From Candidatus Shapirobacteria bacterium CG_4_10_14_0_8_um_filter_39_15 (GTDB lineage: Bacteria; Patescibacteriota; Microgenomatia; UM-FILTER-39-15), in the NCBI GenBank assembly GCA_002784465.1, contig PFLE01000004.1, positions 8,494-72,493 on the forward strand: a stretch of DNA of 64,000 bases. The letters are read 5' to 3'. Positions 3,874 through 47,707 of the stretch are shown one piece after another. The notes below the pieces were generated by a model. That model was not told where the DNA came from. It did not search any database and worked only from the letters and a program-made list of their open reading frames with translations. Within the stretch, counting starts at the first letter, position 1; each line of letters starts with the position of its first letter. Made by a program: the position numbers and the translations under genes.

Positions 3874-4548
3874 TTGTCCCTCCTCTTTAGAAATACCTTA
3901 ATTTTTTTGGGATATTTAGTTGACGAAATTGACGCTAATACCTATTCGGCGCAAATGCAAAGATTGCGAAACCAGGGTTGGTATCAGCGGTCAACGGTTC
4001 AATCAACCATTTCCCGATTGCTTTCGGTAGGGGATATCGAAAAGACAATTAAAAATGGAAGAAGCTATTATCGCTTGACTTCCAAAGGGTCAGAAAGAAT
4101 AAAAGAAGATGTTCCTTTATTGAAATTAGCCGAAAAATCTTGGGATGGGAAGTGGAGAATGGTTATTTTTGACATCAAAGAAAAATATCGACGCCAAAGG
4201 GAAGGCTTAAGAAGGAAACTTTTGTCATTAGGTTTTGGCATGTGGCAGGAATCAGTTTATATTACCCCCTTTGATATTGCCCAAGAAGTAAATCAGTATC
4301 TTCTTTCCCAAAAACTTTTTCCCCATGCGATTTGTCTGGTGGCCAAAAGGAATGAAGTGGGGGATGAAAAAATTCTGGCGAATTATATCTGGAAATTAGA
4401 TAAGGAGATATTGTTCTCCAATGCCCAAGGCCCCAGCAGAAGGCTGACGGCAATTTCGAGAAACGAGAGCTCCTCGGGGGGATTAAGAAAGAGCTTTTTC
4501 ACTTTTCACCTCCTTTTTTGCGACCAACTTCTTAAATTGCTGACTTAG
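3874..4548 (+). CDS. PaaX-like winged-helix regulator, paralog 1 (C-terminal part degenerate)
   Basis: Shares the core WDGKWRMVIFDIKEKYRRQREGLRRKLLSLGFGMWQESVYITPFD with four other ORFs in this window. It has an N-terminal wHTH-like segment but lacks the C-terminal DDPxLP..LLP..W.G motif seen in the other paralogs. Confidence 0.6.
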   Translation: MSLLFRNTLIFLGYLVDEIDANTYSAQMQRLRNQGWYQRSTVQSTISRLLSVGDIEKTIKNGRSYYRLTSKGSERIKEDVPLLKLAEKSWDGKWRMVIFDIKEKYRRQREGLRRKLLSLGFGMWQESVYITPFDIAQEVNQYLLSQKLFPHAICLVAKRNEVGDEKILANYIWKLDKEILFSNAQGPSRRLTAISRNESSSGGLRKSFFTFHLLFCDQLLKLLT

Positions 4549-4585
4549 ATTGTTATAATTGTTAGATTGTTATAATGTTAGAATG
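4548..4585. repeat. AT-rich TTGTTATA / TTGCTATA motif element (copy upstream of dprA)
   Basis: GATTGTTATAATTGTTAGATTGTTATAATGTTAGAATG. Related copies occur at 5676-5760, 31498-31586 and 53687-53731. Confidence 0.6.
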
Positions 4586-5670
4586 TGACGAATGAAGAGA
4601 AAAAATATTGGATTGGGTTTTCCTGCGTGCCGGGAATTGGGCCAAAGAAATTTAAAACTTTATTAAAATATTTCGGGTCGGCGGAGAAGGCCTGGAAAGG
4701 GGACTTACGGGAAGTTGGATTTAAGGAAGAATCCATTAGGAATTTTAATAATTTTAGAGAAAAGTTTGACTTTTCTTCGTATTTCCTTCGGTTAGAAAAA
4801 CTGGGTGTAAATAGCCTAATACTAGAGGATAAAAATTACCCAGAAAGTTTGAAACAGCTGGAGGATGCCCCCTTTGTGATTTACCTGTTGGGAGAAATTT
4901 TACCGTCTGATGAATTGGCAATTGGAATTGTGGGAACCAGAAAGATTACGGGCTATGGAAAACAGGTGACCGAGAGTTTGACGGCCGATTTAGTCAGTAA
5001 TGGTTTAACAATCGTTTCCGGTTTGGCCTATGGAGTGGATTACGCGGCTCACTCAACCGCATTGGAAATGGGCGGCCGAACCATCGGGGTTTGGGCCGGC
5101 GGTTTGGATACGGTTAATGATGGATTTAGAAAATCTTTGGTGGAAAAAATTTTGAAGCAAAAACAGGGAACGATTATTTCCGAATATCCTTTAGGTTTTG
5201 AGCCGCGGCGGACGACTTTTCCCCAAAGAAACCGAATTATTTCCGGCTTGTCATTGGGAGTTTTGGTCACTGAAGCAGCCGAGGACTCGGGTTCCCTAAT
5301 AACCGCCAAATGTGCCGTAGAACAAGGACGAAAAGTTTTTGCTGTCCCGGGTCCAATTACTTCCTCGTTAAGTGCCGGTACCGCGAAGCTTCTAAAAGAA
5401 AAAGCAATTTTAGTTTATAATGTTAAAGATATTCTGGATGAAATTAATATCGCGGTTAGGGAAAAGGGGCTAGCGGCGAGGGAGATATTACCAGAGAACG
5501 AGAACGAGGAAAAAATTCTGGCGTCGTTGAAAAATGAGAACCGAAACATTGACGAGATTGCTAAAATAACTAGAATAGAAATAAGCCAACTTTCAGGGAT
5601 AATGGCGATTCTGGAATTAAAAGGTATAGTGGTAAATTTAGGGGGATCCGTTTTTGGTTTAGGAAGATAG
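4585..5670 (+). CDS. dprA: DNA processing protein DprA (Smf)
   Basis: Rossmann-like DprA core (GIVGTRKITGYGKQ ... VSGLAYGVDYAAH ... AVPGPI) plus a C-terminal wHTH. Confidence 0.85.
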   Translation: MTNEEKKYWIGFSCVPGIGPKKFKTLLKYFGSAEKAWKGDLREVGFKEESIRNFNNFREKFDFSSYFLRLEKLGVNSLILEDKNYPESLKQLEDAPFVIYLLGEILPSDELAIGIVGTRKITGYGKQVTESLTADLVSNGLTIVSGLAYGVDYAAHSTALEMGGRTIGVWAGGLDTVNDGFRKSLVEKILKQKQGTIISEYPLGFEPRRTTFPQRNRIISGLSLGVLVTEAAEDSGSLITAKCAVEQGRKVFAVPGPITSSLSAGTAKLLKEKAILVYNVKDILDEINIAVREKGLAAREILPENENEEKILASLKNENRNIDEIAKITRIEISQLSGIMAILELKGIVVNLGGSVFGLGR

Positions 5671-5675
5671 AGGAT

Positions 5676-5760
5676 GATTGCTATATTGCTATATTGCTAT
5701 ATTGTTAGCCTGCGGGTAGAAAATAACAATATAACAATCGTAACAATATAACAATTATTG
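5676..5760. repeat. AT-rich TTGCTATA motif element forming a long imperfect inverted repeat (dprA-topA intergenic)
   Basis: GATTGCTATATTGCTATATTGCTATATTGTTAGCC, a loop, then AACAATATAACAATCGTAACAATATAACAATTATTG. Confidence 0.6.
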
Positions 5761-5761
5761 T

Positions 5762-7771
5762 ATGGATTTAATTATAGTAGAATCACCAACAAAAGCGCGA
5801 ACGTTATCAAGATTCCTGGGGTCTGATTATCAGATCGAAGCCACCATGGGCCATATCCGTGATTTGCCGCAAAAAAAGTTTGCCATTAAAACCGATAAGG
5901 ATTTTGAACCGGAATATGCGGTTGTTCCCGGAAAAGAAGAAACCATTAAAAGATTGCAAACCTTAGCCAAAAAGGCTGGTAAAATTTATCTGGCAACAGA
6001 CCCCGATCGCGAGGGAGAAGCAATCGCATGGCATGCTCGCATTGCCTGCGAAAATCCGAAATCCGAAGCACGAAATTCGAAATTTGTGAGAGCAACCTTT
6101 CACGAAATTACTAAGACGGCAATTGAACACGCGCTGAAAAACCCACGTGATATTGATATGGCCCTAGTTAATGCCCAGCAGGCGAGGAGAGTTTTGGATC
6201 GGATTGTCGGTTACAAACTCTCGCCTCTTTTGTGGTTTAAAATCCGCAAGGGTTTATCGGCAGGTAGAGTCCAAACTGTCGCGGTCCGTTTAATCGTCGA
6301 GCGGGAAAGAGAAATTGAAAAATTCATTACAGTAGAATATTGGGAAATTTTCGTGGGTTTGAAAAAACATTTGGGCGGGATGATGCCGGATGCCTCGATT
6401 TTTAATGCCAAACTAATTTCTGAAAACGGCCAAAAATTGGAATTGCATAATCAGCAAGAATCGGATATTCGGGTAAGTGAGTTAAATGACGCTGGTTATG
6501 AAGTCCAAAATATTGAGAAAAAACTGGCCAAAAGACCGCCGCCCCCGCCATTTACGACTTCGACTTTACAACAGCAAGCCGCCAATCGTTTGGGTTGGCC
6601 GGCTAAAAAAACGATGAGCGTTGCCCAAAGTCTTTATGAAAAAGGTTTAATTACTTATCACCGGACCGATTCGACTAATTTGGCAATGGAGGCGGTGATT
6701 GCCGCCAGAGAATTTATTAAACAAAAATACGGAGAGAATTTTTTACCCGAAAAACCAAGGTTTTACAAAACAAAATCAAAAGTAGCGCAGGAAGCGCATG
6801 AAGCGATACGTCCAACTGAAGTTGGGTGGGAAGCGGGAAGCGGGAAGCTGCTTGCCCTGAGCGGAGTCGAAGGGGAAGTTGGATACGATGAACAAAAATT
6901 ATACGATTTGATTTGGAAAAGATTTACGGCCTGTCAAATGAGCGAGGCAGTTTTTGATGAGACAAAGTTATCAGTCTTGGCTACATCTAAAACTAACCAT
7001 TATGATTTGGAAACCTTGGGAAGAATAATCAAATTTGCCGGCTGGTTAACTTTGTACGGTAAGGGCGAGAGTGACGAAGACGGGCAATTGCAACTACCAG
7101 AATTGTTTATCGGCGATGAATTAGATTTGGTGAAAGTGAACCCGCTACAGAAATTTACCAAACCGCCGGCGAGATATAACGAGGCTTCTTTAATTAAAAC
7201 TTTGGAAGAATACGGAATTGGCCGGCCGTCAACTTATGCCCCGACGATTTCCACAATTCAAGACCGGATGTATGTTGAAAAAACAGAGAATAAATTTTCC
7301 CCAACTTCCTTGGGAATAGCGGTTAATGATTTCCTGCTGGAATATTTTCCGGACATTTTTGATTATCAATTTACTGCCCACATGGAAGACGATTTGGATG
7401 AAATTGCCAACGGAAAAAAGGAATGGGTGCCGGTAATTAGAGAATTTTTCGAACCATTTAACACGAAGTTGACCAGTGTTTCCAAAGTTTCCGAAAGAGT
7501 GGCTGTCGAAACGGAAGTCACAGACGAAAAATGTCCGCAGTGCGGCGCGCCCCTGGTAGTTCGTTTAGGCCGTTATGGTAAATTTCTTTCCTGCTCAAAA
7601 TTCCCGGAATGTAAATTCACGAAACCTTTCATAAAAGAAGCCGGTTTTAATTGTCCAAAATGCGGCGCACCGGTGGTTTTAAGAAAAACTAAAAAAGGGA
7701 AAACTTTTTACGGTTGTTCCAAATGGCCTAAGTGTGATTTTGCCACCTGGCGTAAACCAAACGTCAACTGA
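5762..7771 (+). CDS. topA: DNA topoisomerase I
   Basis: Toprim N-terminus (IIVESPTKARTL), a catalytic domain, and two C-terminal zinc ribbons (CPQCGAPLVVRLGRYGKFLSCSKFPEC and CPKCGAPVVLRKTKKGKTFYGCSKWPKC). Confidence 0.92.
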   Translation: MDLIIVESPTKARTLSRFLGSDYQIEATMGHIRDLPQKKFAIKTDKDFEPEYAVVPGKEETIKRLQTLAKKAGKIYLATDPDREGEAIAWHARIACENPKSEARNSKFVRATFHEITKTAIEHALKNPRDIDMALVNAQQARRVLDRIVGYKLSPLLWFKIRKGLSAGRVQTVAVRLIVEREREIEKFITVEYWEIFVGLKKHLGGMMPDASIFNAKLISENGQKLELHNQQESDIRVSELNDAGYEVQNIEKKLAKRPPPPPFTTSTLQQQAANRLGWPAKKTMSVAQSLYEKGLITYHRTDSTNLAMEAVIAAREFIKQKYGENFLPEKPRFYKTKSKVAQEAHEAIRPTEVGWEAGSGKLLALSGVEGEVGYDEQKLYDLIWKRFTACQMSEAVFDETKLSVLATSKTNHYDLETLGRIIKFAGWLTLYGKGESDEDGQLQLPELFIGDELDLVKVNPLQKFTKPPARYNEASLIKTLEEYGIGRPSTYAPTISTIQDRMYVEKTENKFSPTSLGIAVNDFLLEYFPDIFDYQFTAHMEDDLDEIANGKKEWVPVIREFFEPFNTKLTSVSKVSERVAVETEVTDEKCPQCGAPLVVRLGRYGKFLSCSKFPECKFTKPFIKEAGFNCPKCGAPVVLRKTKKGKTFYGCSKWPKCDFATWRKPNVN

Positions 7772-7789
7772 CAAGGTTAGACCTTGTCA
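7769..7789. repeat. REP-like 21-bp perfect palindrome TGACAAGGTTAGACCTTGTCA (copy 1; overlaps the topA TGA stop and the RAYT stop)
   Basis: Exact palindrome read directly from the sequence. Confidence 0.9.
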
Positions 7790-8502
7790 CTAATAGTATC
7801 AGCGTTGTCGAGAGCGAATTTACCTAATAGTTCTTCAGAATTTCCCGCATAGTCTTCAATAAATTTTTTATAAGAATTTATTTCTTTAGGAATAAGAAGA
7901 TTGGTGGAATCGAAATAATCAAGAATAATTTTTGGCTTAATCCAATCGGCAGATTTATTGCCTAGATAATAATTATAACTGGAGTAGGGAGAATTGACAG
8001 GGTTAAATCCTTTATTCGATAGTTCTTTAGGATTGAGATGAATATATCGAGATAAATGTAATAGATAAGAATCTTCCTGAATTAAAGCTGCCTTAAAGGC
8101 TCCTTGGAAAAGATGCCCAACTCTTTTATATCGACTATTGAAATACATAGAATAAGTTGTTAAAAGTCTTCTTAGTAATTTAGTCATTCCGTCTAAGGTC
8201 AATTGTTGTATGAGTAAATGAAAATGGTTCGGCATAAGACAATAGGCTAGTAAGATAACTTCGTTTTTTAGATTTTGGAGCGGTCGTAATCTGACAGGGT
8301 TAAACCCTGTCAGGATAAGATTAGCAAGTGGGTGTTGTTTTTGGTCGTTTTTGGTTTGCTCGGAGAGATAATACTTTAGTAGATGTAAAAAAACTCGATA
8401 ATCTTGGTCATCTAAAAAAATGTTACGTTTTTCAACTCCTCGATTGTAAACATGGTAGAATCCGTTTTCCACATACTGCTTAATAATATTTCTGGAGGGC
8501 AT
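7777..8502 (-). CDS. REP-associated tyrosine transposase (RAYT; IS200/IS605 TnpA-like Y1 HUH enzyme)
   Basis: HUH motif (LMPNHFHLLIQ) and the catalytic-Tyr region (SRYIHLNPKE) match the RAYT signature (YIHxNPV). The gene is bracketed by two copies of the 21-bp palindrome TGACAAGGTTAGACCTTGTCA. Confidence 0.8.
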   Translation of the reverse strand: MPSRNIIKQYVENGFYHVYNRGVEKRNIFLDDQDYRVFLHLLKYYLSEQTKNDQKQHPLANLILTGFNPVRLRPLQNLKNEVILLAYCLMPNHFHLLIQQLTLDGMTKLLRRLLTTYSMYFNSRYKRVGHLFQGAFKAALIQEDSYLLHLSRYIHLNPKELSNKGFNPVNSPYSSYNYYLGNKSADWIKPKIILDYFDSTNLLIPKEINSYKKFIEDYAGNSEELLGKFALDNADTISDKV

Positions 8503-8518
8503 ATTACCTACATTTTAT

Positions 8519-10466: not shown

Positions 10467-12035
10467 ATGGCAGGCAAAAGGACAATTGACTTTACGGTTT
10501 TGGTCGATCAATATCTCCATCATGATGGTTGGAAAGCTAAAGCGACTTCTAATTCCAATTATTCCCTGTCTGGTCTAATTTCTCATACTTCGGCTTCGGT
10601 CTTGGCAAATTATGCCTTACAGAATATTTATTCACCTGCTGCCCGTAAAGCTCACGAACAAGGGATAATTCATATTCATGATTTGGCTCACTCTTTAGTC
10701 GGTTATTGTGCCGGCTGGTCGCTACAAAAATTATTAATGCAGGGATTCGGCGGGGTTGACGGGCAAATTGAAACTAAACCGGCAGCCCATTTTTCCACGG
10801 CGGTTCAGCACGTAGTTTATTTTCTAAAATCGATGTATCAGGAATGGGCGGGAGCACAGGCTTTTTCTTCTTTTGACACGATAATGGCCCCGTTTATTTT
10901 TTATGATGAATTAACTTACTCGCAAGTTTACCAAGAAATCCAAAAACTGGTCTATTCTATTAATTTGCCTAACCGCTGGGGATTTGAAATGACTTTTTCC
11001 AATTTAACTTTTGACTGGATTGTTTCTAATGATTTGGCTGACCAGCCGGCAATTATTGGCGGAAAATTAATGAAGAAAAAATATAAGGAATTTCAGAAAG
11101 AAGCAGACATGATCAACCGGGCTTTTTTGGAAGTAATGCTGAAAGGTGATAAGAATGGCCGGCCGTTTACTTTCCCAATTCCGACTTACAATATTACCAA
11201 AGAGTTTTTTGAAACCAATGGCGACAATCAAAAATTATTATTTCAGGTGACAGCAAAATATGGCTTACCGTATTTTCAAAATTATATTGGGTCAGGTTTA
11301 GATCCTTCTTCTATCCGGGCGATGTGCTGCCGGTTAAATATGAATTTAAATGAATTAATGAAGCAGCCGGGGAATCTTTGGGCAAAAGGGGATTCAACCG
11401 GATCGGTGGGGGTAGTGACGATTAATTTGAACCGACTTGCCTGGGAAGGGGCTAGCGGCAAGGGGCGAGCGGCTAGGGAAGAAAATGCCAAAAAGAAATT
11501 TTTTAAGCTGCTCAAAAAATATATTAATATTTCTGCCGATTCGTTGGAGAAAAAAAGAGAAGTAATCGAAAAAAGTATGAAAGACGGTTTGATGCCTTAT
11601 TCTAAATATTATTTGGGAACTTTTAGAAATCATTTTTCCACTATTGGGGTTTGCGGCGGTAATGAGGCCTGTTTGAATCTTCTGGGTCAGGATTTGACGA
11701 CTCCGGAAGGACAGAAATTTATCCAGGAAACCTTGAATTTTATGAAAGAGGAGATGGTTAAAATACAAAAAAAGACTGGTCATTTGTATAATTTGGAAGC
11801 GACCCCGGCCGAATCAACCGCTTACCGTTTTGCCCTGTTGGACCAGAAACTTTGTTCAGGAATAAAACTGGCAGGATCTTCTGATTCACCTTATTTGACT
11901 AACTCAACTCAACTGCCGGTAGATTTTAGTTCAGATCTTTGGGAAGCTCTCAATTTACAAAATGAAATTCAGGCGGCTTATACCGGCGGGACAATTTTCC
12001 ATACATTTTTAGGAGAAGAAATGGAAGATTGGTAA
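10467..12035 (+). CDS. nrdD: Anaerobic ribonucleoside-triphosphate reductase NrdD (class III), main body, terminated by an in-frame TAA
   Basis: Class III RNR catalytic core. The ORF ends ...GEEMEDW with TAA at 12033-12035, and the glycyl-radical domain continues in the same frame 9 nt later. Confidence 0.8.
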   Translation: MAGKRTIDFTVLVDQYLHHDGWKAKATSNSNYSLSGLISHTSASVLANYALQNIYSPAARKAHEQGIIHIHDLAHSLVGYCAGWSLQKLLMQGFGGVDGQIETKPAAHFSTAVQHVVYFLKSMYQEWAGAQAFSSFDTIMAPFIFYDELTYSQVYQEIQKLVYSINLPNRWGFEMTFSNLTFDWIVSNDLADQPAIIGGKLMKKKYKEFQKEADMINRAFLEVMLKGDKNGRPFTFPIPTYNITKEFFETNGDNQKLLFQVTAKYGLPYFQNYIGSGLDPSSIRAMCCRLNMNLNELMKQPGNLWAKGDSTGSVGVVTINLNRLAWEGASGKGRAAREENAKKKFFKLLKKYINISADSLEKKREVIEKSMKDGLMPYSKYYLGTFRNHFSTIGVCGGNEACLNLLGQDLTTPEGQKFIQETLNFMKEEMVKIQKKTGHLYNLEATPAESTAYRFALLDQKLCSGIKLAGSSDSPYLTNSTQLPVDFSSDLWEALNLQNEIQAAYTGGTIFHTFLGEEMEDW

Positions 12036-12044
12036 TCGGCTAAA

Positions 12045-12290
12045 GTGTTAGTCAAAAAAATCGCCGAAACCACAAAAATTCCCTATTTTACCATTACCCC
12101 GACTTTTTCTGTTTGCAAAAAAGATGGTAGAATGAAAGGCAAAGTTGAGAAATGTCCCAAGTGCGGAGGCGAAACGGAAATCTACTCAAGAATAGTCGGC
12201 TACCTGCGTCCTTTAAACCGTTGGAATCCGGGCAAGGCGGAAGAATTTAAAGAAAGAAAAACGTTTGAGATTACGAGTCATTCTGAGTGA
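12045..12290 (+). CDS. nrdD: NrdD C-terminal glycyl-radical / zinc-ribbon domain (same frame as 10467..12035, separated by one TAA)
   Basis: Carries CPKCG and the RIVGYL glycyl-radical motif. Its last codons and the stop lie inside a GTCATTCTGAG hairpin repeat. Confidence 0.7.
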   Translation: MLVKKIAETTKIPYFTITPTFSVCKKDGRMKGKVEKCPKCGGETEIYSRIVGYLRPLNRWNPGKAEEFKERKTFEITSHSE

Positions 12291-16092: not shown

Positions 16093-16208
16093 AGAAGATT
16101 CTTCGTTACACTCTGAATGACCTAAAGAGAAGATTCTTCACTTTGTTCAGAATGACACCGATTCGTCATCCCGAGCACATTCGACAAGCTCAGTGCGAGG
16201 GATCTTCC
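16093..16208. repeat. Hairpin repeat R, copy 4 (rearranged: two right halves then one left half)
   Basis: Two ...CTGAATGAC / ...CAGAATGAC right halves followed by GTCATCCCGAGC ... GGGATCTTCC, between the GIY-YIG gene and folD. Confidence 0.65.
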
Positions 16209-17092: not shown

Positions 17093-17290
17093 CAGAATCA
17101 ATAGCGATTCTGATTCTTGCAGCCCGTAAGGGCAGTAGAAAATTGTTAAGCCGCGTAGTTTAACGGCAAAACAACGAAAGTTATGTAGGTTCGAATCCTA
17201 TCACGGCTTAGCATTTAGCAAAAGATTACTCACACTCGATATTGCTCCCTGAAACCATAATCGAGTGGGGGAATAAGGGAGCATTTACAA

Positions 17291-18471: not shown

Positions 18472-18541
18472 TCATTCTGAGCCGTAGGCGAAGAATCCAG
18501 CGAAGCGTTGCTTCTGGATCCTTCGTTGCACTCAGGATGAC
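18471..18541. repeat. Hairpin repeat R, copy 5 (compact, near-perfect)
   Basis: GTCATTCTGAGCcgtagGCGAAGAATCCAGcgaagcgttgcttCTGGATCCTTCGttgcaCTCAGGATGAC, between tsf and frr. Confidence 0.85.
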
Positions 18542-18554
18542 AGGATAAAGCATT

Positions 18555-20761: not shown

Positions 20762-22025
20762 TAACAAGAAATCTCAATTTTGACACTTTTAGGAAATCTG
20801 AATTTTGAAAAACTGAAGGGCAGGTTAAACCTTCAGTCTGAATTGGTAAATGATTTTACCCATTGATTCCAAAGATACTTTATCTCCCCTCAGGTAAAGC
20901 CAAACCCGACATGCTATATATCCTGGTGGAATTTTGTATCGGATTCCAAACAAAGAGATGGTCGAGTCGGTATACACAAACCTCCTTACGGTAATGGTTA
21001 AAAGTTCTTGTAATTCTTGTTTGGATTTTGTCCGTTCCGATGGCTGGTAGACTTCGGCTGGAGTTCTTTTGTGCATCCCTAACCCCTCGGACTTGAATTC
21101 TTCATTGAACTTAATTTGCCACTCGAAGAATCTTTTGTTTAGCTCTTCAAAAAATCTGACATCAAGATTTTCCCTAACAAAATCCCTTTGTAAAAATCTC
21201 CAGAATCTCTCAATTTTCCCTTTGGTTTGGGCTTTATGGGCAAAGATTAACTGTATTCCCAACTGTTTAGCATAATCCTGGTAAGTTGCTTCACCTTTAA
21301 GGTTGGTTGACCGGTATTGTGATCCCTTGTCCTGCAAAATGGCTTTTGGTAAACCCCACTGAAAAAGACAATGAGACCAAACCCGAAAAACATTCATCTG
21401 TGTTTGTTTGGAAAACCACTTTCCTCCGAGAACGAATCGGGAGCAATCGTCAATATTCGCAATCAGATACGCCCAACAGCCAATCTCTTTAGTGTAGGAA
21501 TTAACAAGACACGGAAAGAATATCTTCCCCATAATGTCAGCTTGCCACAGATCATTGGGAGATTGAGCCACAAACCGAGTGATGGGCTTAAGTCTTTCAA
21601 TGTTTAGATGACTTAAACCTTCTTCGACAAAAATCTGGTTTACTCTTCTTTGGGTAATTTGTTTTATGCCGGTCAGCTCGAGTACTTTTCTGGCTGATCT
21701 GAAAGATTTCTCTCTTTTCCTGGAAATAATCTCTGATCTTTGCCCGAGAGTTATTTTACAGAAATTAGAATGCCTGCCGTCCCTTAATGCTCCCAGGCCA
21801 TCTTTAACTGATTTTTTCAGATAGTTGTAAATTGTTTGCCGGCTACAGCTAAGCTCTTTTGCGGCTTGGGTTGGGGTAATTTTTCTTTTTAAAACCCTAC
21901 CAATTGTTAGTTTTTTGTTTTCAAGTTCTAACTTCTTCACTTTTCTCACCTCCAATCATTTGGAAATGAGTTTAGCGTAAAAGTTGAGATTTCGTTTATA
22001 TGTAAAAGTTTAGATTTCTCTTAAC
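20762..22025. mobile_element. IS481-like insertion sequence (imperfect terminal inverted repeats around GAGATTTCTYG)
   Basis: Contains a single 376-aa HTH plus rve (DDE) transposase gene. The left end AAGAAATCTCAATTTTGACACTTTT matches, as an inverted repeat, the right end TAAAAGTTGAGATTTCG / TAAAAGTTTAGATTTCTC. Confidence 0.5.
20825..21955 (-). CDS. DDE transposase (integrase core / rve domain), IS481-family-like
   Basis: N-terminal HTH (TPTQAAKELSCSRQTIYNYLKK) and an rve core (WQADIMGK ... AHKAQTKGKIERFWRFLQRDF). Confidence 0.75.
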   Translation of the reverse strand: MEVRKVKKLELENKKLTIGRVLKRKITPTQAAKELSCSRQTIYNYLKKSVKDGLGALRDGRHSNFCKITLGQRSEIISRKREKSFRSARKVLELTGIKQITQRRVNQIFVEEGLSHLNIERLKPITRFVAQSPNDLWQADIMGKIFFPCLVNSYTKEIGCWAYLIANIDDCSRFVLGGKWFSKQTQMNVFRVWSHCLFQWGLPKAILQDKGSQYRSTNLKGEATYQDYAKQLGIQLIFAHKAQTKGKIERFWRFLQRDFVRENLDVRFFEELNKRFFEWQIKFNEEFKSEGLGMHKRTPAEVYQPSERTKSKQELQELLTITVRRFVYTDSTISLFGIRYKIPPGYIACRVWLYLRGDKVSLESMGKIIYQFRLKV

Positions 22026-22515: not shown

Positions 22516-22645
22516 ATTAAGGCAACAAAACACCTGGAGATAGGGTAAAAATACAAAGTTATCCAATTCTCCAGGTTTCTTTTTGTACAATTAGGTGTTG
22601 CAAATTATACCCCGATCGTGGTAATAATAGTAATAGATAAAGAAA

Positions 22646-23386: not shown

Positions 23387-23435
23387 AATTAGTAATATTG
23401 TCTTTTTAAAAAATTAATTGGTATAATTATTATTA

Positions 23436-27681: not shown

Positions 27682-27778
27682 TGGGTTAGGTTATTGGGTT
27701 AGGGTGAGGCAGTTGGTATGGTCATAAGGTAAGGTTAATAGGAATTTTCCACCTTACCATAACCATTTCCCAAACTAA

Positions 27779-28261: not shown

Positions 28262-28330
28262 GCCAGCAGGCGAAGAATCTAGCGAAGCGTGCGGCCTGCG
28301 GCCTAGATCCTTCACTTTATTCAGGATGAC
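28252..28330. repeat. Hairpin repeat R, copy 6
   Basis: GTCATTCTGAGCcagcagGCGAAGAATCTAG ... CCTAGATCCTTC ... TCAGGATGAC. It supplies the stop codon of the GatB/YqeY gene. Confidence 0.85.
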
Positions 28331-28353
28331 ATTTTTCTTATTGACAACTCTAC

Positions 28354-30698: not shown

Positions 30699-31496
30699 AT
30701 GGGTAAAATTGATATAGCAGTTATCGGTGGTTCCGGATTTTACAATTTATTGAATAAGCCAGAATTAATTAAGGTGGAAACCCCCTATGGTCCGCCTTCG
30801 GCCAAACTAGCGGTTGGCAAGGTTGGTGAGAGAAAAGTCGTTTTTCTACCGCGGCATGGTTACGATCATGAGTTACCGCCAAGCCAGATTCCTTACAAAG
30901 CCAATTTATGGGCTTTTAAATCTTTAGGCGTGGAAAGAATAATTGCGATTACTGCTTGCGGTTCACTTCAGACCAAAATGAAAAGAGGAGATTTTGTAGT
31001 TGTTGACCAATTCGTGGACCGCACGCGCCATCGCGATGATACATTTTTCCAAGGTCCCCTGACAACTCATATTTCCAGCGCTTATCCGTATTGTGAACAA
31101 CTTTCAAAAATTGCTTACCAGACAGGAAGAAAACTCAATATCGGAATCCATCAAAATGGGACCTTAGTAATAATTGAAGGCCCCAGATTTTCTACCAAAG
31201 CGGAGAGTGAATGGTTTACCAAAATGGGTTGGGATATTATCAACATGACCGGTTATCCGGAAGTCACGCTGGCTAAAGAATTGGAACTTTGTTACTGCGC
31301 GATTGCTTTAGTAACTGATTATGATGTGGGAATCGTTACCAAAGAAAAAATTAAACCGGTTTCTATGGGTGAAATTACGAAAGTTTTTAAAGAAAATAAT
31401 CAAAAAGCGCAGAAATTGGTTTTGGAAATGATTAGGAAAATACCAGATGAAAGAAGTTGCGAATGTGGAAAAGTGTTGGAAGGAGCGAGAATATAA
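30699..31496 (+). CDS. Purine nucleoside / 5'-methylthioadenosine phosphorylase (PNP family 2)
   Basis: PNP/MTAP-like sequence (AVIGGSGF ... FLPRHG ... ITACGSL). Confidence 0.75.
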   Translation: MGKIDIAVIGGSGFYNLLNKPELIKVETPYGPPSAKLAVGKVGERKVVFLPRHGYDHELPPSQIPYKANLWAFKSLGVERIIAITACGSLQTKMKRGDFVVVDQFVDRTRHRDDTFFQGPLTTHISSAYPYCEQLSKIAYQTGRKLNIGIHQNGTLVIIEGPRFSTKAESEWFTKMGWDIINMTGYPEVTLAKELELCYCAIALVTDYDVGIVTKEKIKPVSMGEITKVFKENNQKAQKLVLEMIRKIPDERSCECGKVLEGARI

Positions 31497-31497
31497 A

Positions 31498-31586
31498 CAA
31501 TTGTTACATTGTTATATTGCTAGATTGCTAGAATGAAGACGACTGAAAACATTATAGCAATTTAACATTATAGCATTCTAACAATG
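31498..31586. repeat. AT-rich TTGTTATA motif element with inverted partner (upstream of apt)
   Basis: CAATTGTTACATTGTTATATTGCTAGATTGCTAGAATG, a spacer, then AACATTATAGCAATTTAACATTATAGCATTCTAACAATGG. Confidence 0.6.
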
Positions 31587-32418: not shown

Positions 32419-32550
32419 TCGATTCCTCCTTTTTGGAACTTATGGTAACGAGCGAATTACGGTAGGAGAATATTACCAGAATTGAATAGGAAAATCAATT
32501 ATTATAAGGTATTGCATATTTATATGCTGGAGCGTTAGAATATGTAATAT

Positions 32551-33285
32551 ATGGGGAAGAAATTAAGAATTAGAGATAAATTACTTCTTGGAGCGGCAAT
32601 GTCCGGTGATCTGTTTTTTGAATTTGTACAACCTATGTCGGTTCAGTTGGGGAAAATGAGAGGAGCACTGCCTCCTAATTATAAACTTACTAATTTTACG
32701 GTTTCGGTTTCCAGAATGTTGACAACCGGATATTTAGAGAAAGTGATAAAAAACGGGGAACCGTATTTAAGATTAACAGGAAGAGGGCAAAAAGCATTGG
32801 TAAGAGATTATCCAATGTTTAGTTTTAAAAACAAAAGGTGGGATGAAAAATGGAGAATTGTATTTTATGATATTCCTGATACCAAGAAGGGTATTAGAGA
32901 TAGTTTAAAATCAAAACTAAAAGAATTGGGATTGGGGATGATTCAGGAAAGTATTTATATTACGCCATATGATATTGCGCAAGATTTAAAAGAGTTTATC
33001 GAGGCACAAAAGCTTGAAAAATATGTGTTTGTAGGTGAAATTAATAACCTATTGATAGGGGATCAAGAAGCTCTTGCGGAACAAATTTGGAAGGTGAAAG
33101 AAATAAACAATAAATATTATGATTTAATGGACAAAATAAATACTAAACAGTCAAAGAGCGAAATCCTTTCAGACTATGAAGTAATTTTAAAAGAAGATCC
33201 TTGCTTGCCAAAAGAACTGCTTCCAAGCAATTGGTTAGGGGATAATGTTTACAAAGAAGTAAAACAGTTATTAACGAGAGATTAA
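32551..33285 (+). CDS. PaaX-like winged-helix regulator, paralog 3
   Basis: Close paralog of 22646..23386, with the core KRWDEKWRIVFYDIPDTKKGIRDSLKSKLKELGLGMIQESIYITPYD and C-terminal EDPCLPKELLPSNWLGD. It is bracketed by approximately 45-bp direct repeats. Confidence 0.7.
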   Translation: MGKKLRIRDKLLLGAAMSGDLFFEFVQPMSVQLGKMRGALPPNYKLTNFTVSVSRMLTTGYLEKVIKNGEPYLRLTGRGQKALVRDYPMFSFKNKRWDEKWRIVFYDIPDTKKGIRDSLKSKLKELGLGMIQESIYITPYDIAQDLKEFIEAQKLEKYVFVGEINNLLIGDQEALAEQIWKVKEINNKYYDLMDKINTKQSKSEILSDYEVILKEDPCLPKELLPSNWLGDNVYKEVKQLLTRD

Positions 33286-33720
33286 TTATTGCATATTTAT
33301 ATGCTGGAGCGTGAGATTATGTAATATTGAAGAATAAAAACGAGGTGGTGGTTTCTCGAATTGGTATTGCAATCGAGGCCGTTCCGCCTTTCTAAATCAT
33401 TCTTGTTTGCTGCGGCGCCTGGCTCGAAGGAGGTCACAAATCTTGAAGTACTCGTGAAAGGTCCAAATCAACACACATGTGGGTTTGTTTCGTCGGTGCG
33501 GTAACCACAAAATGAATAGAACATGATAGAAAAGGTTTAAGCAGATTGAGAATCCAGATTCTCCAGATCATGGGAAGTTCTTTCTCTGTTTCCAAAATGA
33601 CTAACGACCCATCGCCCCAGGAAGAAATGAAACTTACCTTCTTCCCGAGAGCTTCAAGGTATCGGTCGAGCTTGGGTGAAGTAACCCCTACACCTTAATC
33701 GTATTGATCATCTTTCCTCC

Positions 33721-33936
33721 TTATGGATCGAATGGAGCTAGACCTAGAAAAAGCAGAAGAATACTCACCAAAAGGAGAGTCACGCCTGGGCTAGAGATCA
33801 TTTCTCCTTTATTGTCAAACCAAATTCTCCACAATCCTAGTTTTTCCACAAACAACAGGCGATAGAGAGCGATTACCCAAAAGATAGCCGCACCAACCAG
33901 ATATGGTGTGGAACTATCCCAAAATTCCCAATTCAT
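33721..33936 (-). CDS. Hypothetical small membrane protein
   Basis: 71 aa with two TM helices. Confidence 0.3.
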   Translation of the reverse strand: MNWEFWDSSTPYLVGAAIFWVIALYRLLFVEKLGLWRIWFDNKGEMISSPGVTLLLVSILLLFLGLAPFDP

Positions 33937-34025
33937 ACTTCCTCCTTGTATGTTAAGGTACTAAGGTTCTGGAGCAGTTTTATTGCAGGCATCCAGATTT
34001 TATCACAATTTGGTATAATTTATTA

Positions 34026-42317: not shown

Positions 42318-42406
42318 TAACTTCCCAATCTTCAAGAAACTTTCTTACCAAAATTTAGGATATCCATAAAATTGTCATTGTTATTTAAATGTGATATGGT
42401 ATTTGT

Positions 42407-43066
42407 ATGGAAGACGAAAAAATAAGTGAACTGGCGGAAAAATTAAAAATCACTTTGGAGGAAGAGCAGAAAAAAGATTTTATAGATAAAACAAAAGAAA
42501 TTCTAAAATATCCTAAAGTTAAACTGGTTTTGGCCTTATTGGGTGTTGGTAGTGTCGTAGTGTTGGCCGTAGTTGCTCCCGGCGTTGGGTTGGCATTCAA
42601 AGGTGCTAGCAAAATTCTTGAGGACCAAAGCGATAAAGAATGGAAAAAATATAATCAGGGATTATTGCGTCGAACTCTTGATCGGCTTAATAAAAGAAAA
42701 ATGGTGGAATATGATCAGCAAGGGGACAAGGTGATTGTTAAATTAACCGAAGCGGGAAAGAAAATGATTCTTAAATATTCCCTTGATAATCTTGAGATTA
42801 AACGGCCGAAAATTTGGGATAAGCAATGGCGTTTGATTATTTATGATGTCCCTTATGGCAAAAGAAGGTGGGCTGATATTTTTGGGCGATGGCTGAAAAA
42901 TCTAGGGATGTATCGGATACAGAAAAGTGTTTTTCTTTACCCGTTTCCGTGTGATAATGAAGTTCAATTTCTAAGGGAATATTTAGGAATAGGGAAGCAT
43001 GTTTGGTTAATGAAAGTAACCAAGATGGAAAACGAATCGGTTCTTAAAGAATATTTTGGTCTGTAA
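42407..43066 (+). CDS. PaaX-like regulator, paralog 4 (with a predicted N-terminal TM helix)
   Basis: Core KIWDKQWRLIIYDVPYGKRRWADIFGRWLKNLGMYRIQKSVFLYPFP. It is bracketed by the direct repeat AATTTAGGATATCCAYRAAATTG. Confidence 0.6.
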   Translation: MEDEKISELAEKLKITLEEEQKKDFIDKTKEILKYPKVKLVLALLGVGSVVVLAVVAPGVGLAFKGASKILEDQSDKEWKKYNQGLLRRTLDRLNKRKMVEYDQQGDKVIVKLTEAGKKMILKYSLDNLEIKRPKIWDKQWRLIIYDVPYGKRRWADIFGRWLKNLGMYRIQKSVFLYPFPCDNEVQFLREYLGIGKHVWLMKVTKMENESVLKEYFGL

Positions 43067-43164
43067 ATTACGACAGAATTTAGGATATCCACGAAATTGG
43101 TAATGTAATAATTACAAAATATAAAAAAATAAAAACGGTTGGAAAAAAATTCTCTCTTAAATTT

Positions 43165-43559: not shown

Positions 43560-44258
43560 TTACAATGAAGAAGATTGAAGAAGGGATAGAATCGGTTGAA
43601 GGTTACCCTCAATAATTTTATCCAAATTATGCCAAGATTTATTAAGACGGTGATCAGTTACCCGGTTTTGTGCATAATTATACGTGCGAATTTTTTCAGC
43701 TCTCATGCCCCTGCCAATAGGCGAGCGGTAGCCGGCTTGGGTAGTTTCTTTTTCCAATTCCGATTTTTCCCAAAGTTTGGATCTTAAAATGGCCATCGCC
43801 AATTCGCGGTTTCGTTCTTGAAACCTTTCCTGCTGGGCCTGAACAACAATGCCGCTTGGAATATGGCGCAGTCGAACAGCCGTTGAAACCTTCTGGACAT
43901 TGTGACCACCGTGAGAAGAAGCGCGGTAAAATTCCCAAGCAATGTCCGCCGGGTTAATTTGAATCTCCTGTTCGCTGATTTCCGGCAGGACCGCAACGGT
44001 TGCTGTTGAGGTATGAATTCGGCCATAGCGTTCGGTTTGAGGAACCCGTTGGACACGATGAACACCCGATTCATGCTGCAACAACACAAAAGCGTTGGTT
44101 CCCTGGATTTTTATTACTCCGTCATCAATATCAAAAACTTTCCATCCTTGGGAATTGGCATATCTGGTATACATGCGCAGAAGATCATCTGCCCAGATTT
44201 TGGCTTCATCACCGCCGGTTCCGGGTCTGGCTTCAATGATGGCAACATCGGTTTTCAC
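43560..44258 (-). CDS. prfA: Peptide chain release factor 1-like protein lacking domain 1, with GGH in place of GGQ (possible pseudogene)
   Basis: Strong RF1 similarity ([29 protein letters not shown] with a PxT-type motif PQT; [15 protein letters not shown]). The catalytic motif reads SSHGGHNVQ (codon CAC). The ORF begins at the domain 2 equivalent, and the upstream part of the gene is in the rpmE reading frame. Confidence 0.7.
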
Positions 44259-44572
44259 TGTTTCTTTTCAAACAAACCTCGAAGATTTTGTGGTCTTTCT
44301 TTTTCTTTTGCTTCTTCTTCCAAGCGGCGCAATCTTCTTTTTTCAACTTTTTTGACGATTTTGGTGGTTGAGGCCTTGCTTTGTCTGGCTTGAAATTTTT
44401 CTACCATGCCGGCCGTATCAATTAATTTCATTTCCCCGGTAAAGAACGGATGGCACTTTGAACAGACATCAACATGAATTTCCGGCTTGGTTGAACCGAC
44501 GGTAAAAGTATTCCCGCAAATGCAGGTAATTTTAGCATCAGGATACCATTTGGGATGGATATCTTTTTTCAT
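44255..44572 (-). CDS. rpmE: 50S ribosomal protein L31 with an approximately 38-aa C-terminal extension resembling the end of RF1 domain 1
   Basis: The L31 core ([46 protein letters not shown]) is followed by ...[24 protein letters not shown], which resembles the RF1 motif ELREAKEK...LLLPKDP. Confidence 0.75.
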
Positions 44573-44584
44573 TTGAAGATAATT

Positions 44585-45847: not shown

Positions 45848-46245
45848 CCGAGAGCAACTACTTTTGCCGAAACTCTTATTTTATTTTGCTTATTTTCCAC
45901 ATAAATTGATTCACCCGTTGGTTGGATAATTTTATTGATACCCAAAATAATATTTGTAGCGATACTTGCTGATCCGCAAGCAGTCTCTTTGAACAAAGAA
46001 TTAGTTTGTTTTACATACACATAGGGTTCAATCCTGTTTTCATCTGTTAATACAATTCCAAAAGCCGGAAGTCTATACTCGTTTGTAAGTTCCAACAAAC
46101 TCCTTCTAGTAATTCTAATTTTTTCCTTAGTAACTAAAAAACCTATTCCGGACAATAAAACAAAACCATTACAAAACCGATTTGTTCGACCGATCCTAAG
46201 TAGTTTTTTACTAAATTCTTTCTTTGACTTAACGGACAATTCCAC
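45841..46245 (-). CDS. DapF-like (diaminopimelate epimerase C-terminal domain-like) fragment
   Basis: 134 aa with an ACGSASIA motif resembling the DapF second-domain Cys motif. It is about half the length of DapF. Confidence 0.3.
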   Translation of the reverse strand: MELSVKSKKEFSKKLLRIGRTNRFCNGFVLLSGIGFLVTKEKIRITRRSLLELTNEYRLPAFGIVLTDENRIEPYVYVKQTNSLFKETACGSASIATNIILGINKIIQPTGESIYVENKQNKIRVSAKVVALGC

Positions 46246-46333
46246 ACTAAAAGAGTAGAGTTACCCCCAGCGATTAAAAATTTTTAAGCCTGAGTTTGTT
46301 TATCATAGTTTTTTAATGATATTTGCATTATTT

Positions 46334-46408
46334 TGGGTGGCTGACGGGAATTGAACCCGCAACATCCAGTTCCACAAACTGGCGCTCTGCCATTGAGCTA
46401 CAACCACC
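46334..46408 (-). tRNA. tRNA-His (anticodon GTG) with the G-1 extra 5' nucleotide
   Basis: Reverse complement is G-GTGGTTG TA GCTC AATGGC AGAGC G CCAGT TTGTGGA ACTGG ATGTT GCGGG TTCAATT CCCGT CAGCCAC C. The cloverleaf folds with one G-U pair in the acceptor stem, and G-1 is paired with C73. Confidence 0.85.
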
Positions 46409-46927
46409 ACGTAAAATTTCTTCGAAAATTAACGTGGTTAGTCGCGTTTAAATCTTAAAGACTTATTACACGACACCATCCTTGACAACATCCTCCGCAT
46501 CTTAGCACTCAGCTTTTCAGTATTATTCATACACGCTTCGTGTTGCGATTGCTGGAGGATTGGATCTTCATGCGACAAACTTTTCGTTATTAACTCCAGT
46601 TTGTCTGGAAGATCACAAAAAAACCTCTCGTTCTTTGCATTTGTCGACAATGACAAAAACAAGGAACGAGAGGCCTTCGACTTACCCGCCCATCCTTATT
46701 CCCTGTACCGTTACTGGTACGGGGCTCTCAGGTCGGCTCTACTTTGCGGTGACACCGACTGTTGGATTTTACGGTTCAACTTCCGTCGAGTATTTGGCTC
46801 GCTGCCCGTGGATCGTGACTCCACTTAACGCTTTCTAAATATTAAACTTGTATTATTATACAAGAAATAATTTTAATGTCAAATTTACATATTTGACAAA
46901 CGGCCGCTAAGGAAGTATTGTAAAAAT

Positions 46928-47707
46928 ATGGGTAGGAATAGAACGACGAAAGAGAAAGTTGAGGAGTTTTCCAAAGGAGTTTTGGAAACGTCGATGGATA
47001 TGAGTTTGTTTATTGTTGGTTTGGGAATTCAAAGCTATAGTATTAGTTCTGGAAGAACCGATTTTTTCAAGGCGCTGGAAAATTCTGGAGATTTTGTTAA
47101 ATCTGTTAAGAAAAATTATTTACGAAGGGGAGTTTATTCTGCCACTCAAAAAAAGTATTTAGAGAAAAACGAAAATGGTTGGCAGTTAACAAATGAAGGA
47201 CAAATAAGATTAGACGAGATATTGCCTAAATATCATCGCAAACGACTTTGGGATGGAAAAATATATCTTATTACTTATGATGTTCCTGAAAGTAAACGAA
47301 AAGATAGAGATTTATTAAGAGGTTATCTTAAAAGAATTGGTTGCGGTATGTTTCAGGCTTCTGTTTGGTTAACTCCTTACGATCCAGCAGAACAACTCAC
47401 CCGTTTTATAAAAGATTTTCGAATTTCAGGTTTTATCGCTGTATCAAATATTGGGCGCGATGGAAATGTTGGTCGTATGTCTGTAAAGGATTTAGTCCAG
47501 AGTGTATATTGTTTGGATCGTCTAAATGAAAGATACCGATATTTTTTAATCGAAAGCCAGAAACAAAGAATGACGCTGATTGAAACAAATTTCCATTTCC
47601 TCTCAATTCTTAAAGATGACCCGCAACTTCCTTTTTCTTTATTACCTGATGGTTGGTTAGGGGATAAAGCTTTTAATGTTTACAATACTTTAATAGCGGC
47701 CGCATAA
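46928..47707 (+). CDS. PaaX-like winged-helix regulator, paralog 5
   Basis: Core RLWDGKIYLITYDVPESKRKDRDLLRGYLKRIGCGMFQASVWLTPYD and C-terminal DDPQLPFSLLPDGWLGDK. Confidence 0.65.
   Translation: MGRNRTTKEKVEEFSKGVLETSMDMSLFIVGLGIQSYSISSGRTDFFKALENSGDFVKSVKKNYLRRGVYSATQKKYLEKNENGWQLTNEGQIRLDEILPKYHRKRLWDGKIYLITYDVPESKRKDRDLLRGYLKRIGCGMFQASVWLTPYDPAEQLTRFIKDFRISGFIAVSNIGRDGNVGRMSVKDLVQSVYCLDRLNERYRYFLIESQKQRMTLIETNFHFLSILKDDPQLPFSLLPDGWLGDKAFNVYNTLIAAA

Follow-up and report, generated by a model that had tools for sequence, protein, structure and literature searches.

The closest described relatives of the proteins considered here are the PaaX regulators of Escherichia coli and Pseudomonas (structure 8a39; Pfam PF07848, PF20803 and PF08223). 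PaaX comprises a winged helix-turn-helix (wHTH) domain, a motif for dimerization and a domain at the C-terminus, and the E. coli protein binds the sequence TGATTC-N27-GAATCA and is a repressor at its own promoter, with phenylacetyl-CoA causing its release (PMC9493321). In a 2026 survey of 6,536 complete genomes, paaX was rarely found outside a paa context (PMC13186573). Shorter, three-domain orphan PaaX-like proteins of 234-250 aa are represented by the structures of Rv0674 from Mycobacterium tuberculosis (3kfw) and of a Jannaschia protein (3l09). Here we describe a multi-copy branch of this family, five genes of which lie within a stretch of 64,000 nt (the window) of contig PFLE01000004.1 from a Candidatus Shapirobacteria bacterium. 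No paper linking PaaX with Cas2 or with Patescibacteria was found in the literature searched.

The family shares with PaaX the domain order, namely a wHTH domain, a Cas2-like middle domain and a helical C-terminal domain, as well as the C-terminal motif DPxLPxELLPxxW, and PaaX is its best match in both profile and fold comparisons. Long palindromic operators with widely spaced half-sites, which are known for PaaX (6+27+6 bp), are predicted here as well, but the sequences are unrelated: the predicted site spans about 38 bp and has 9-bp half-sites, the centres of which lie about 29 bp apart, on either side of a conserved CGRYCG centre. Unlike PaaX, the family has no paa neighbours, has five members in the window and more than one in several other metagenome-assembled genomes (MAGs), and resides in housekeeping clusters. 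Its members are shorter (about 245 aa versus 316 aa) and keep a Cas2 signature (YDIP/QxSV) that E. coli PaaX lacks. Rv0674 and the Jannaschia protein are similarly short, and 3kfw is the best length-normalized fold match (TM 0.57/0.60), but both come from other phyla and Rv0674 is without the aspartate of the YDI motif (aligned 'IVTSIG'). What is new is a short, Cas2-signature-retaining, multi-copy and housekeeping-embedded PaaX branch with a predicted operator design of its own; its members were already present in databases, under three different names.

A PaaX-type family that keeps a Cas2 signature

The five genes all lie on the plus strand: paralog 1 at 3874-4548 (224 aa, TTG start; Pfam PaaX_M E 1.4e-21), paralog 2 at 22646-23386 (246 aa; 1.9e-22), paralog 3 at 32551-33285 (244 aa; 1.7e-21), paralog 4 at 42407-43066 (219 aa; 6.4e-14) and paralog 5 at 46928-47707 (259 aa; 5.2e-17). 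They share the core W-D-x-K/Q-W/I-R/Y-x-V/I-x-Y/F-D-I/V ... L-G-x-G/Y-x-x-Q-x-S-V/I. An earlier reading of the window, made from the letters alone (the sequence-only reading), had named these five open reading frames and a common core, and both are verified. A six-frame hidden Markov model (HMM) search of the window, using a profile built from the five proteins, returned exactly these genes and nothing else at E<1, which rejects extra or decayed copies in the window; none were found one step past each window end. Because the copies are only 25-51% identical to one another, they are old paralogues rather than the product of a recent burst. The middle domain is 27-51% identical between paralogs and the N-terminal domain 17-33%, except in the pair of paralogs 2 and 3 (62%), which agrees with the proposal that the wHTH regions have diverged between copies. 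In a crude neighbour-joining tree, a large clade is formed by members from mre contexts and another by members from recR contexts together with paralogs 2 and 3; paralogs 1, 4 and 5 occupy separate branches, with paralog 5 grouping with the homologues from L058 and L060. Contigs identical to the window are found in two Candidatus Shapirobacteria assemblies from Crystal Geyser (GCA_002793655 and GCA_002778865) and in ENA assemblies.

Our comparison set consisted of 59 related loci, collected from one genome per species with a single peptide pattern that fits only two of the five window copies. The named taxa among them are Shapiro-, Levy-, Gottesman-, Woese-, Roizman- and Blackburnbacteria and generic Patescibacteria, and many further records go under placeholder names (for example 'uncultured Gammaproteobacteria'). 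Several MAGs supply two to four loci each. A second copy within 6 kb is present in only two of the 59 loci. The density of five copies per 64 kb is therefore high, as the sequence-only reading had held, and clustering is rejected as a general trait of the family. A wider profile search, against representatives of 50%-identity clusters among 1.84 billion proteins, matched 8043, 5188 and 462 representatives at E 1e-3, 1e-10 and 1e-30, respectively; the weaker matches probably include PaaX-family proteins of other lineages.

All five proteins match PaaX_M at 52.3-79.6 bits, against a gathering threshold of 24, and the E values (6e-14 to 2e-22) place this resemblance far beyond chance in each. Pfam itself describes PF20803 as 'PaaX protein central Cas2-like domain', which confirms the earlier suggestion that the shared core has the pattern of Cas2 and of the middle domain of PaaX. 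The PaaX_C threshold of 22 bits is exceeded by paralog 2 (25.6) and paralog 3 (27.6) and just missed by paralog 5 (21.7); these three are full-length copies, paralog 5 being a divergent one, and paralogs 1 and 4 have no match. The Pfam PaaX N-terminal domain is matched weakly, at 20 bits, by paralog 1 only. When a family profile built from 60 sequences was compared with a structure database, it aligned with E. coli W PaaX (8a39; E 5e-16) over positions 54-246, from the recognition helix through the C-terminal DPxLPxELLPxxW, and with M. tuberculosis Rv0674 (3kfw; E 9e-11), covering all three domains; Cas2 chains were matched at only E 0.01-0.09. The profile alignment begins at position 48-54 of 8a39 and 3kfw.

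The AlphaFold model of paralog 2 (pLDDT 83) consists of a winged helix at residues 7-75, a beta-alpha-beta-beta-alpha-beta unit at residues 101-164 and four C-terminal helices. The first of these follows the helix-helix-helix-wing order and is matched by wHTH structures, as expected for the broad PaaX family. The best Foldseek matches of the model are the PaaX-type structures 8a39 (2.5e-11), 3kfw and 3l09, in keeping with the relationship first proposed from the sequence. Cas2 and VapD structures match the middle domain alone. AspA/TubR/PadR-type proteins match the N-terminal domain alone (AspA 4rs8, TM 0.75-0.78 on the target), and as they are without Cas2-like and PaaX_C domains, their likeness is that of a generic wHTH. 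We conclude that the five proteins are members of the broad PaaX family, built from a wHTH domain and a Cas2-like core. They are not orthologues of PaaX proper, because their scores against the NCBIfam PaaX equivalog TIGR02277 (25.5-76.3 bits) fall far under its cut-off of 264.55 and a paa context is missing: Pfam-annotated gene lists contain no paa genes in about 84 kb around the window or in the 59 related loci. Phenylacetyl-CoA is unlikely to be their regulatory effector.

Only three columns, Trp97, Asp107 and Ser134, are invariant among 60 family members. Asp107, in the YDIP motif, directly follows strand 1 of the middle domain (residues 101-106), where Cas2 holds its metal-binding aspartate, and the segment YDIPxxxRxxRxxLxxxLxxLGxGxxQxSV aligns residue by residue with SSO8090 (3exc), a Cas2-like RNase of Sulfolobus. 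This aspartate is lost in E. coli PaaX ('LLLS--EGLD') and in Rv0674 ('IVTSIGTD'). The middle domain thus has both the beta-alpha-beta-beta-alpha-beta topology and the invariant aspartate after strand 1 that characterize the Cas2 fold. It shares the ferredoxin-like fold with Cas2 structures (3exc, 5xvn and 8q2n; Foldseek probabilities 0.99-1.0 over about 80-90 columns), along with the signature Y-D-I/V after strand 1 and R..L...L..LG...Q.S. A difference from Cas2 is that the domain forms the middle of a fusion protein, with a wHTH on one side and a helical domain on the other.

Two copies depart from this architecture. In paralog 1 the wHTH and Cas2-like domains are kept, and PaaX_C is replaced by 46 unrelated residues. 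The positional orthologue L062, with 67% identity over residues 1-178, has retained the C-terminal 'KDPHLPKELLPVDWLG'. The loss of PaaX_C in paralog 1 is therefore secondary, since the orthologue retains the motif and no frame of the window shows similarity past residue 178. A frameshift was considered and rejected: no frame contains the motif, and tblastn with the orthologue stops at the same residue. The sequence-only reading had reported the loss of DDPxLPxxLLPxxW in paralog 1; this stands, but it is not the sole loss, as paralog 4 is also without the motif. Paralog 4 is a member of a subfamily that numbers at least 17 clusters and is characterized by a Lys/Glu-rich N-terminus, a hydrophobic helix, a wHTH domain, a Cas2-like domain and a tail that is short but conserved, without PaaX_C. 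Its helix (residues 36-58) contains a 20-residue consensus, VLALLGxGSFLxLxVxxPS, conserved in 17 homologues, and reaches a 19-residue Kyte-Doolittle mean of 2.67 (residues 38-56). In the AlphaFold model, residues 1-81 have a pLDDT below 50 and confidence is obtained only from about residue 85 onward. A membrane anchor is plausible, but the helix may instead be helix 1 of the wHTH, with which it aligns in the other paralogues. Of the earlier claim that paralog 4 has gained a transmembrane helix, the very hydrophobic, conserved stretch is borne out.

Bipartite palindromes at the gene ends

Genes of this family are often flanked by repeats. We aligned 160 nt upstream locally with 400 nt downstream in 51 related loci and obtained scores of 38-96 in at least 14 of them, at or above the maximum of about 300 mismatched control pairs (mean 19, 99th percentile 30, maximum 38). 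The repeated unit is nearly always a palindrome centred on CGATCG, CGGCCG or CGGTCG, exemplified by AACAAATTACTATGGCGATCGCCATAGTAATTTGTT in L011. A CGRYCG core lies 10-70 nt before the start in 51 of 61 homologues, against a background of 0.84 sites/kb; the palindrome centre is 20-51 nt before the start codon, and a second copy often directly follows the stop codon. On the core, perfect palindromes of 12 bp or longer reach 2.44/kb upstream and 1.62/kb downstream, compared with 0.034/kb elsewhere. This corresponds to 17 observed versus 0.24 expected upstream (72-fold, Poisson 5e-26) and 12 versus 0.25 downstream (48-fold, Poisson 1e-16). The pattern appeared again at two genes of an independently fetched locus, L083. 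On this MAG contig, PaaX_M genes at 462-1139 (minus strand) and 6001-6690 lie 5 kb apart and each is palindrome-flanked, the centre being GCGATCGC in one palindrome and CACGTG/TACGTA, between G+C-rich arms, in the other.

Averaging the symmetry over 51 upstream and 31 downstream sites revealed a bipartite design. Complementarity is 80-87% at the first base outside the core, falls to 35-58% at bases 2-7 and rises again to 61-90% at bases 8-16, with a peak of 90% at base 13; past base 17 it returns to background (about 26%). At 431 unrelated CGRYCG sites, symmetry is at background at every position. The site thus consists of a pair of 9-bp half-sites, about 29 bp apart from centre to centre, around a middle that is conserved, and spans about 38 bp in total. 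It is the centre, not the arms, that is common to the upstream regions. A -35-like hexamer is found directly 5' of the core in 22 of 51 upstream and 0 of 31 downstream sites, and at 5% of other sites. In one clade, the upstream site reads ATTTAACTA-TTGACAR-CGRYCG-N7-TAGTTAAAT.

The half-sites change together with the protein. Groups of half-sites coincide with groups of recognition helices: ATTTAACTA pairs with the helix HLVWRSLKxGYIEK, TGTAkkTTG...TAACmTACA with NFSRVVxRxLxTGxIEK, and CTTG...CAAG with SYxSxVSRxLSTGNI. Half-site and helix identity are correlated (Mantel r 0.26, p<=0.0005), and control DNA 18 nt further upstream gives r -0.03. This fits the earlier suggestion of diversified DNA-binding specificities.

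In the window, copies of a repeat lie on both sides of each of paralogs 2-5, and only at paralogs 2 and 5 do they have CGRYCG cores; the repeats of paralogs 3 and 4 were found by a repeat scan, and those of paralogs 2 and 5 were added by targeted alignment. Upstream of paralog 2, the operator-like repeat TTATACCCCGATCGTGGTAATAATAGTAATA (22605-22635, plus strand) contains a CGATCG core at 22613-22618, the centre of which precedes the ATG by 30 nt and follows a TTGCAA hexamer, read by hand, by 18 nt. Its downstream counterpart (23367-23397, plus) is identical at 26 of 31 positions; the CGATCG core (23375-23380) shares bases with the last codons, and the repeat runs up to the -35 element of the predicted proS promoter (23398-23427). 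Paralog 3 is preceded by a 41-nt repeat (32510-32550, plus) that ends at the ATG and contains the palindrome GCATATTTATATGC, in which the CGATCG core of the orthologue L070 (CATATTTTTATGCGATCGC) is degenerate. The second 41-nt copy (33287-33327, plus; 39 of 41 identical) begins 2 nt after the stop codon, and there is no third copy in the window. The paralog 4 repeat, of about 30-36 nt, lies upstream at 42345-42374 (plus; TTACCAAAATTTAGGATATCCATAAAATTG), where the palindrome GGATATCC occupies the spacer of a promoter-like TTACCA-16-TAAAAT, and downstream at 43068-43099 (plus), beginning 2 nt after the stop codon. At paralog 5, a predicted promoter and operator (46893-46923, plus) combine TTGACA-17-TATTGT with a repeat copy at 46901-46923, so that the CGGCCG core (46901-46906) falls in the promoter spacer. 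As the -10 element ends 6 nt before the ATG, this promoter fits a leaderless transcript. The downstream copy (47697-47719, plus; CGGCCGC..AAGTATCGTAA) overlaps the last codons and the stop codon. At paralog 1, no upstream copy was detectable, and alignment to the L062 downstream site GATGGAAyGTGACGCGGTCGCAACC identifies a degenerate remnant, GAATGTGACG, at 4581-4590 (plus), overlapping the dprA start. Having lost PaaX_C and with degenerate sites, both of which are kept in L062, paralog 1 looks like a decaying or re-purposed copy. A consensus promoter scanner supports the promoters of paralogs 4 and 5 and of proS.

Back-to-back with the paralog 5 promoter, a 12/12 consensus promoter on the minus strand (TTGACA-16-TATAAT, 46882 to 46855) reads into about 240 nt with a folding z of -4.35 relative to shuffled sequences, ending in a long hairpin and a U-run just before tRNA-His. 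The region 46600-46882 (minus) is a candidate small RNA. Rfam gave no match at E<=1 for the GC-richer stretch before paralog 5.

Genomic positions, proposed regulation and alternatives

The positions of these genes are conserved beyond the window. Paralog 1 lies between mrdA (PBP2) and dprA-topA, and in 18 of the 59 loci a homologue sits within the mreB-mreC-mrdA-dprA-topA cluster, in one of three slots (mrdA/dprA, mreB/mreC or dprA/topA). Paralog 2 lies upstream of proS-cofD. Paralog 3 lies between apt and recR-cysS; the context dnaX-ybaB-recR-cysS is common to five loci, and the position is kept in L010, L023, L051 and L070. Paralog 5 follows tRNA-His. In the related genome GCA_049322615, a single 51-kb contig is collinear, with mreB-mreC-mrdA-[X]-dprA-topA, ProRS-[X]-CofD and apt-[X]-recR-cysS, where the orthologues of paralogs 1-3 are 59-67% identical at the protein level. 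Homologues from Levy-, Shapiro-, Woese-, Roizman- and Blackburnbacteria are found repeatedly inside the mreB-mreC-mrdA-dprA-topA and dnaX-ybaB-recR-cysS clusters, in the latter also in the order dnaX-recR-[X]-cysS, and further recurrent neighbours include glycosyltransferases, an O-antigen-ligase-like protein, GalT, ATP synthase subunits and PPDK. Paralog 3 is present in all ten population contigs from different samples, and a variant without it was sought among these contigs and not found.

The sequence-only reading had placed every copy at an accessory junction and had raised the idea of a mobile regulatory cassette family. The neighbours it cited are real: an rve-type insertion sequence (IS) at 20825-21955 near paralog 2, tRNA-His before paralog 5, and a short apt before paralog 3 (141 aa versus 173 aa in a relative). 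The generalization fails, however, because conservation in other genomes extends to at least three of the five positions, and the notion of mobility sits poorly with a relative that keeps positions 1-3 and with the lack of an empty site in ten contigs. That reading had also named conserved neighbours, in a well-characterized single-function regulator family, as evidence against it: a conserved genomic context was indeed found, but the family is not such a regulator. The IS beside paralog 2 is incidental, given that contexts are conserved, paralog 3 is kept in ten contigs and viral hits number one.

We favour, as the probable joint explanation, a Microgenomates-specific PaaX branch of old paralogues that act as dimeric, autoregulating local repressors on the predicted bipartite palindromes and are vertically inherited within housekeeping clusters (mre/mrdA-dprA-topA, proS-cofD, apt/recR-cysS and ctpB-htrA). 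A role as dimeric repressor is expected from the homology to PaaX. The middle region of solved PaaX-type structures is described as a dimerization motif, and we infer that the Cas2-like domain would likewise mediate dimerization here. Each protein would bind as a dimer to one palindrome of about 38 bp, its two wHTH domains reading the two 9-bp outer half-sites in a paralogue- or clade-specific manner. The constancy of the CGRYCG centre, while helices and half-sites differ between clades, suggests that the centre is contacted by a conserved part of the protein, for which the Cas2-like dimer is an obvious candidate. The upstream copy would overlie the gene's own promoter, often directly 3' of a -35 hexamer, and we propose that binding there would lead to self-repression. 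The downstream copy could form a loop with the upstream copy, or serve as a roadblock that gates read-through into downstream genes; at paralog 2 it abuts the -35 element of the predicted proS promoter.

Several observations weigh against this explanation. Paralog 1 is without a recognizable site, and the repeats of paralogs 3 and 4 are without a CGRYCG core. The consensus scanner did not call the hand-read promoters of paralogs 2 and 3, which leaves an overlap with the promoter secure only at paralogs 4 and 5 and in the TTGACA-bearing clade. The half-sites correlate equally well with the Cas2-like domain (r 0.25), and the co-variation is therefore best described as co-evolution with the whole protein, not as specific helix contacts. 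No single inverted-repeat arm is common to all upstream regions, as no hexamer arm recurs in more than 2 of 54. For a wHTH operator, a core that is invariant between clades with differing helices is out of the ordinary and calls for an explanation of its own. Finally, the explanation does not account for the downstream copy, which is mostly not placed where a promoter of the following gene would stand: that gene, if on the plus strand, begins 70-315 nt away, or the neighbour is convergent.

Among the alternatives, one would regard gene and palindrome as a mobile cassette that inserts by site-specific recombination at CGRYCG palindromes, the flanking copies being the junctions. The genes are indeed flanked by repeats of 23-54 nt, three different slots of the mreB-topA cluster are occupied in different genomes, and an rve-type IS adjoins both paralog 2 and L046. 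At paralog 2 and in L020, moreover, the two imperfect cores are reciprocal hybrids (CCCCGATCGTGG versus CCACGATCGGGG), as attL/attR products would be, but inverting any imperfect palindrome yields the same appearance. Set against these points are the shared positions 1-3 in a relative whose orthologues have diverged to 59-67% identity, the recurrence of contexts across several candidate phyla and the absence of empty-site variants from the ten population contigs. Lone 'empty' palindromes are rare; those considered at alternative mre slots were rejected, since of 16 CGRYCG palindromes outside gene-flank windows several lie upstream of a copy or within coding sequence. No recombinase is linked or adjacent, and variable presence was not observed. 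An association with phages was likewise rejected, as 2.9 million viral contigs of IMG/VR contain one weak relative. The -35 hexamers, found in upstream and not in downstream copies, and a symmetry confined to outer half-sites that co-vary with the protein also speak against recombination junctions. We consider mobile cassettes unlikely.

A second alternative would have the palindromes act as RNA hairpins, that is, as 5'/3' stem-loops or terminators, with the protein acting on RNA through its Cas2/VapD-like domain. Several sites are perfect palindromes of 34-44 nt that would form stable hairpins, their arms vary around a constant centre, as in hairpins recognized by the loop, and in cases of overlap with the last codons the 3' copy is certain to be transcribed. 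The symmetry profile nevertheless disfavours a hairpin, since it describes two half-sites and a centre and no continuous stem: across the 51 and 31 sites, complementarity is low at positions 2-7 beside the core and reaches up to 90% at positions 8-16, the reverse of a loop-closing stem. The upstream copies are probably untranscribed, as they hold -35 hexamers and end 1-34 nt before the start codons of apparently leaderless genes. There are no U-tracts after the sites, and a terminator scan returned none. This makes an RNA-based role very improbable.

The NCBI product name of paralog 2, 'CRISPR-associated endonuclease Cas2', implies a third explanation, and JGI calls relatives 'PaaX', so that one family carries three database names ('Cas2', 'PaaX' and 'hypothetical'). 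Searches with Cas2 profiles, as the sequence-only reading had envisaged, gave borderline, partial matches: 21.1-23.8 bits for Pfam Cas2 (cut-off 23.8) and 21.3-27.9 bits for the cas2 equivalog TIGR01573 (cut-off 24.5), which is reached by four of the five proteins (24.5-27.9) but not by paralog 4 (21.3) and covers only about 35-46 of 96 model positions. The NCBI name arises because a stretch of about 40 residues of PaaX_M with the Cas2 signature passes the TIGR01573 cut-off, and it is likely a systematic misannotation in Patescibacteria. That the proteins are stand-alone Cas2-type nucleases or a remnant of CRISPR adaptation is the least probable of the alternatives, for although four reach that cut-off, the invariant YDIP aspartate and QxSV serine align with the 3exc signature and several Cas2 chains match the middle domain in Foldseek, the profile matches span only some 40 positions against 52-80 bits for PaaX_M, the full protein aligns with PaaX, the proteins are fusions of 219-259 aa with a wHTH domain, unlike Cas2, and neither cas1, another cas gene nor a CRISPR array is found in the window (gene lists and repeat scan) or in the 59 related loci. 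The same lists and scan uphold the earlier statement that paa genes, cas genes and CRISPR arrays are absent nearby.

Other features of the window and implications

Several features of the window stand apart from the PaaX-type genes. The nrdD gene (10467-12290) has an in-frame TAA at 12033-12035, giving 522 + 81 aa, in the window and in L008; L007 and L009 have CAA (Gln) and a single 607-aa open reading frame. The TAA/CAA difference represents a nonsense polymorphism within the population and lies shortly before the C-terminal part. In DnaB (49759-52332), the Pfam annotation of the identical contig shows an intein that includes a LAGLIDADG endonuclease domain. A release-factor gene with PCRF and RF-1 domains (43560-44258, minus strand) encodes 232 aa, which is short for a class-I release factor, and abuts rpmE. 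At 17149-17209, a 61-nt tRNA-like sequence scores 39 bits in Rfam and is missed by ARAGORN; it may be a truncated or unusual tRNA. The 700 nt between paralog 3 and recR (33328-34025) are without a convincing plus-strand open reading frame, and Rfam gave no match at E<=1 in this gap. On the minus strand, some contigs have a hydrophobic open reading frame of 71 aa annotated (33721-33936); in the relative L070 this stretch holds a minus-strand gene of 119 aa.

The window also holds further repeat families. A 21-25-nt palindrome, TGACAAGGTTAGACCTTGTCA, occurs in six copies (7767, 8290, 8517, 10280, 12833 and 34415), three around a Y1 (IS200/IS605-type) transposase gene at 7777-8502 and one inside recR; these resemble REP-like or transposon-end hairpins. 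A repeat of about 29-43 nt, ..GATCCTTCG..CTCAGGATGACA, at 907-949, 16093-16156, 18500-18542, 28289-28331 and 56143-56185, lies 10-70 nt upstream of mreC, folD (two tandem copies), frr, ybeY and a gene at 56232. Tandem octamer arrays of ATTGTTAT / ATTGCTAG are intergenic, at 4548-4593, 5667-5712 and 31490-31535, directly before dprA, topA and apt, and at 53678-53731. Purine-rich repeats of the GGGAAGCGGGAAGC type, at 6824, 11439, 15621, 19443, 29866, 36544, 38746 and 62839, lie inside topA, nrdD, glyA, rseP, dnaX, cysS, ssb and yebC and are probably low-complexity inserts. A 53-nt G-rich intergenic sequence is present in two copies that are 85% identical (27690-27742 and 52332-52384), one directly after the dnaB stop codon.

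The retained Cas2 signature invites a further, unlikely thought, in which the unit of palindrome, gene and palindrome would be more than a regulator with two operators: the Cas2-like dimer might contact or process the CGRYCG centre, and the flanking repeats of about 36-38 bp might be sites of looping, nicking or recombination. If this were true, the Microgenomates family would be a living intermediate between repeat-flanked, DNA-handling Cas2 proteins and purely regulatory PaaX, and would bear on the origin of Cas2 or of PaaX.

The proteins themselves are ordinary regulators. To our knowledge, almost nothing is known about gene regulation in bacteria of the candidate phyla radiation, which cannot be grown alone. 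A PaaX-derived family that is abundant in Microgenomates sits within core clusters for cell shape, DNA processing and aminoacyl-tRNA synthetases. Its readable candidate operator code, with a constant centre, variable half-sites and a co-varying protein, makes regulation in uncultured Microgenomates testable.

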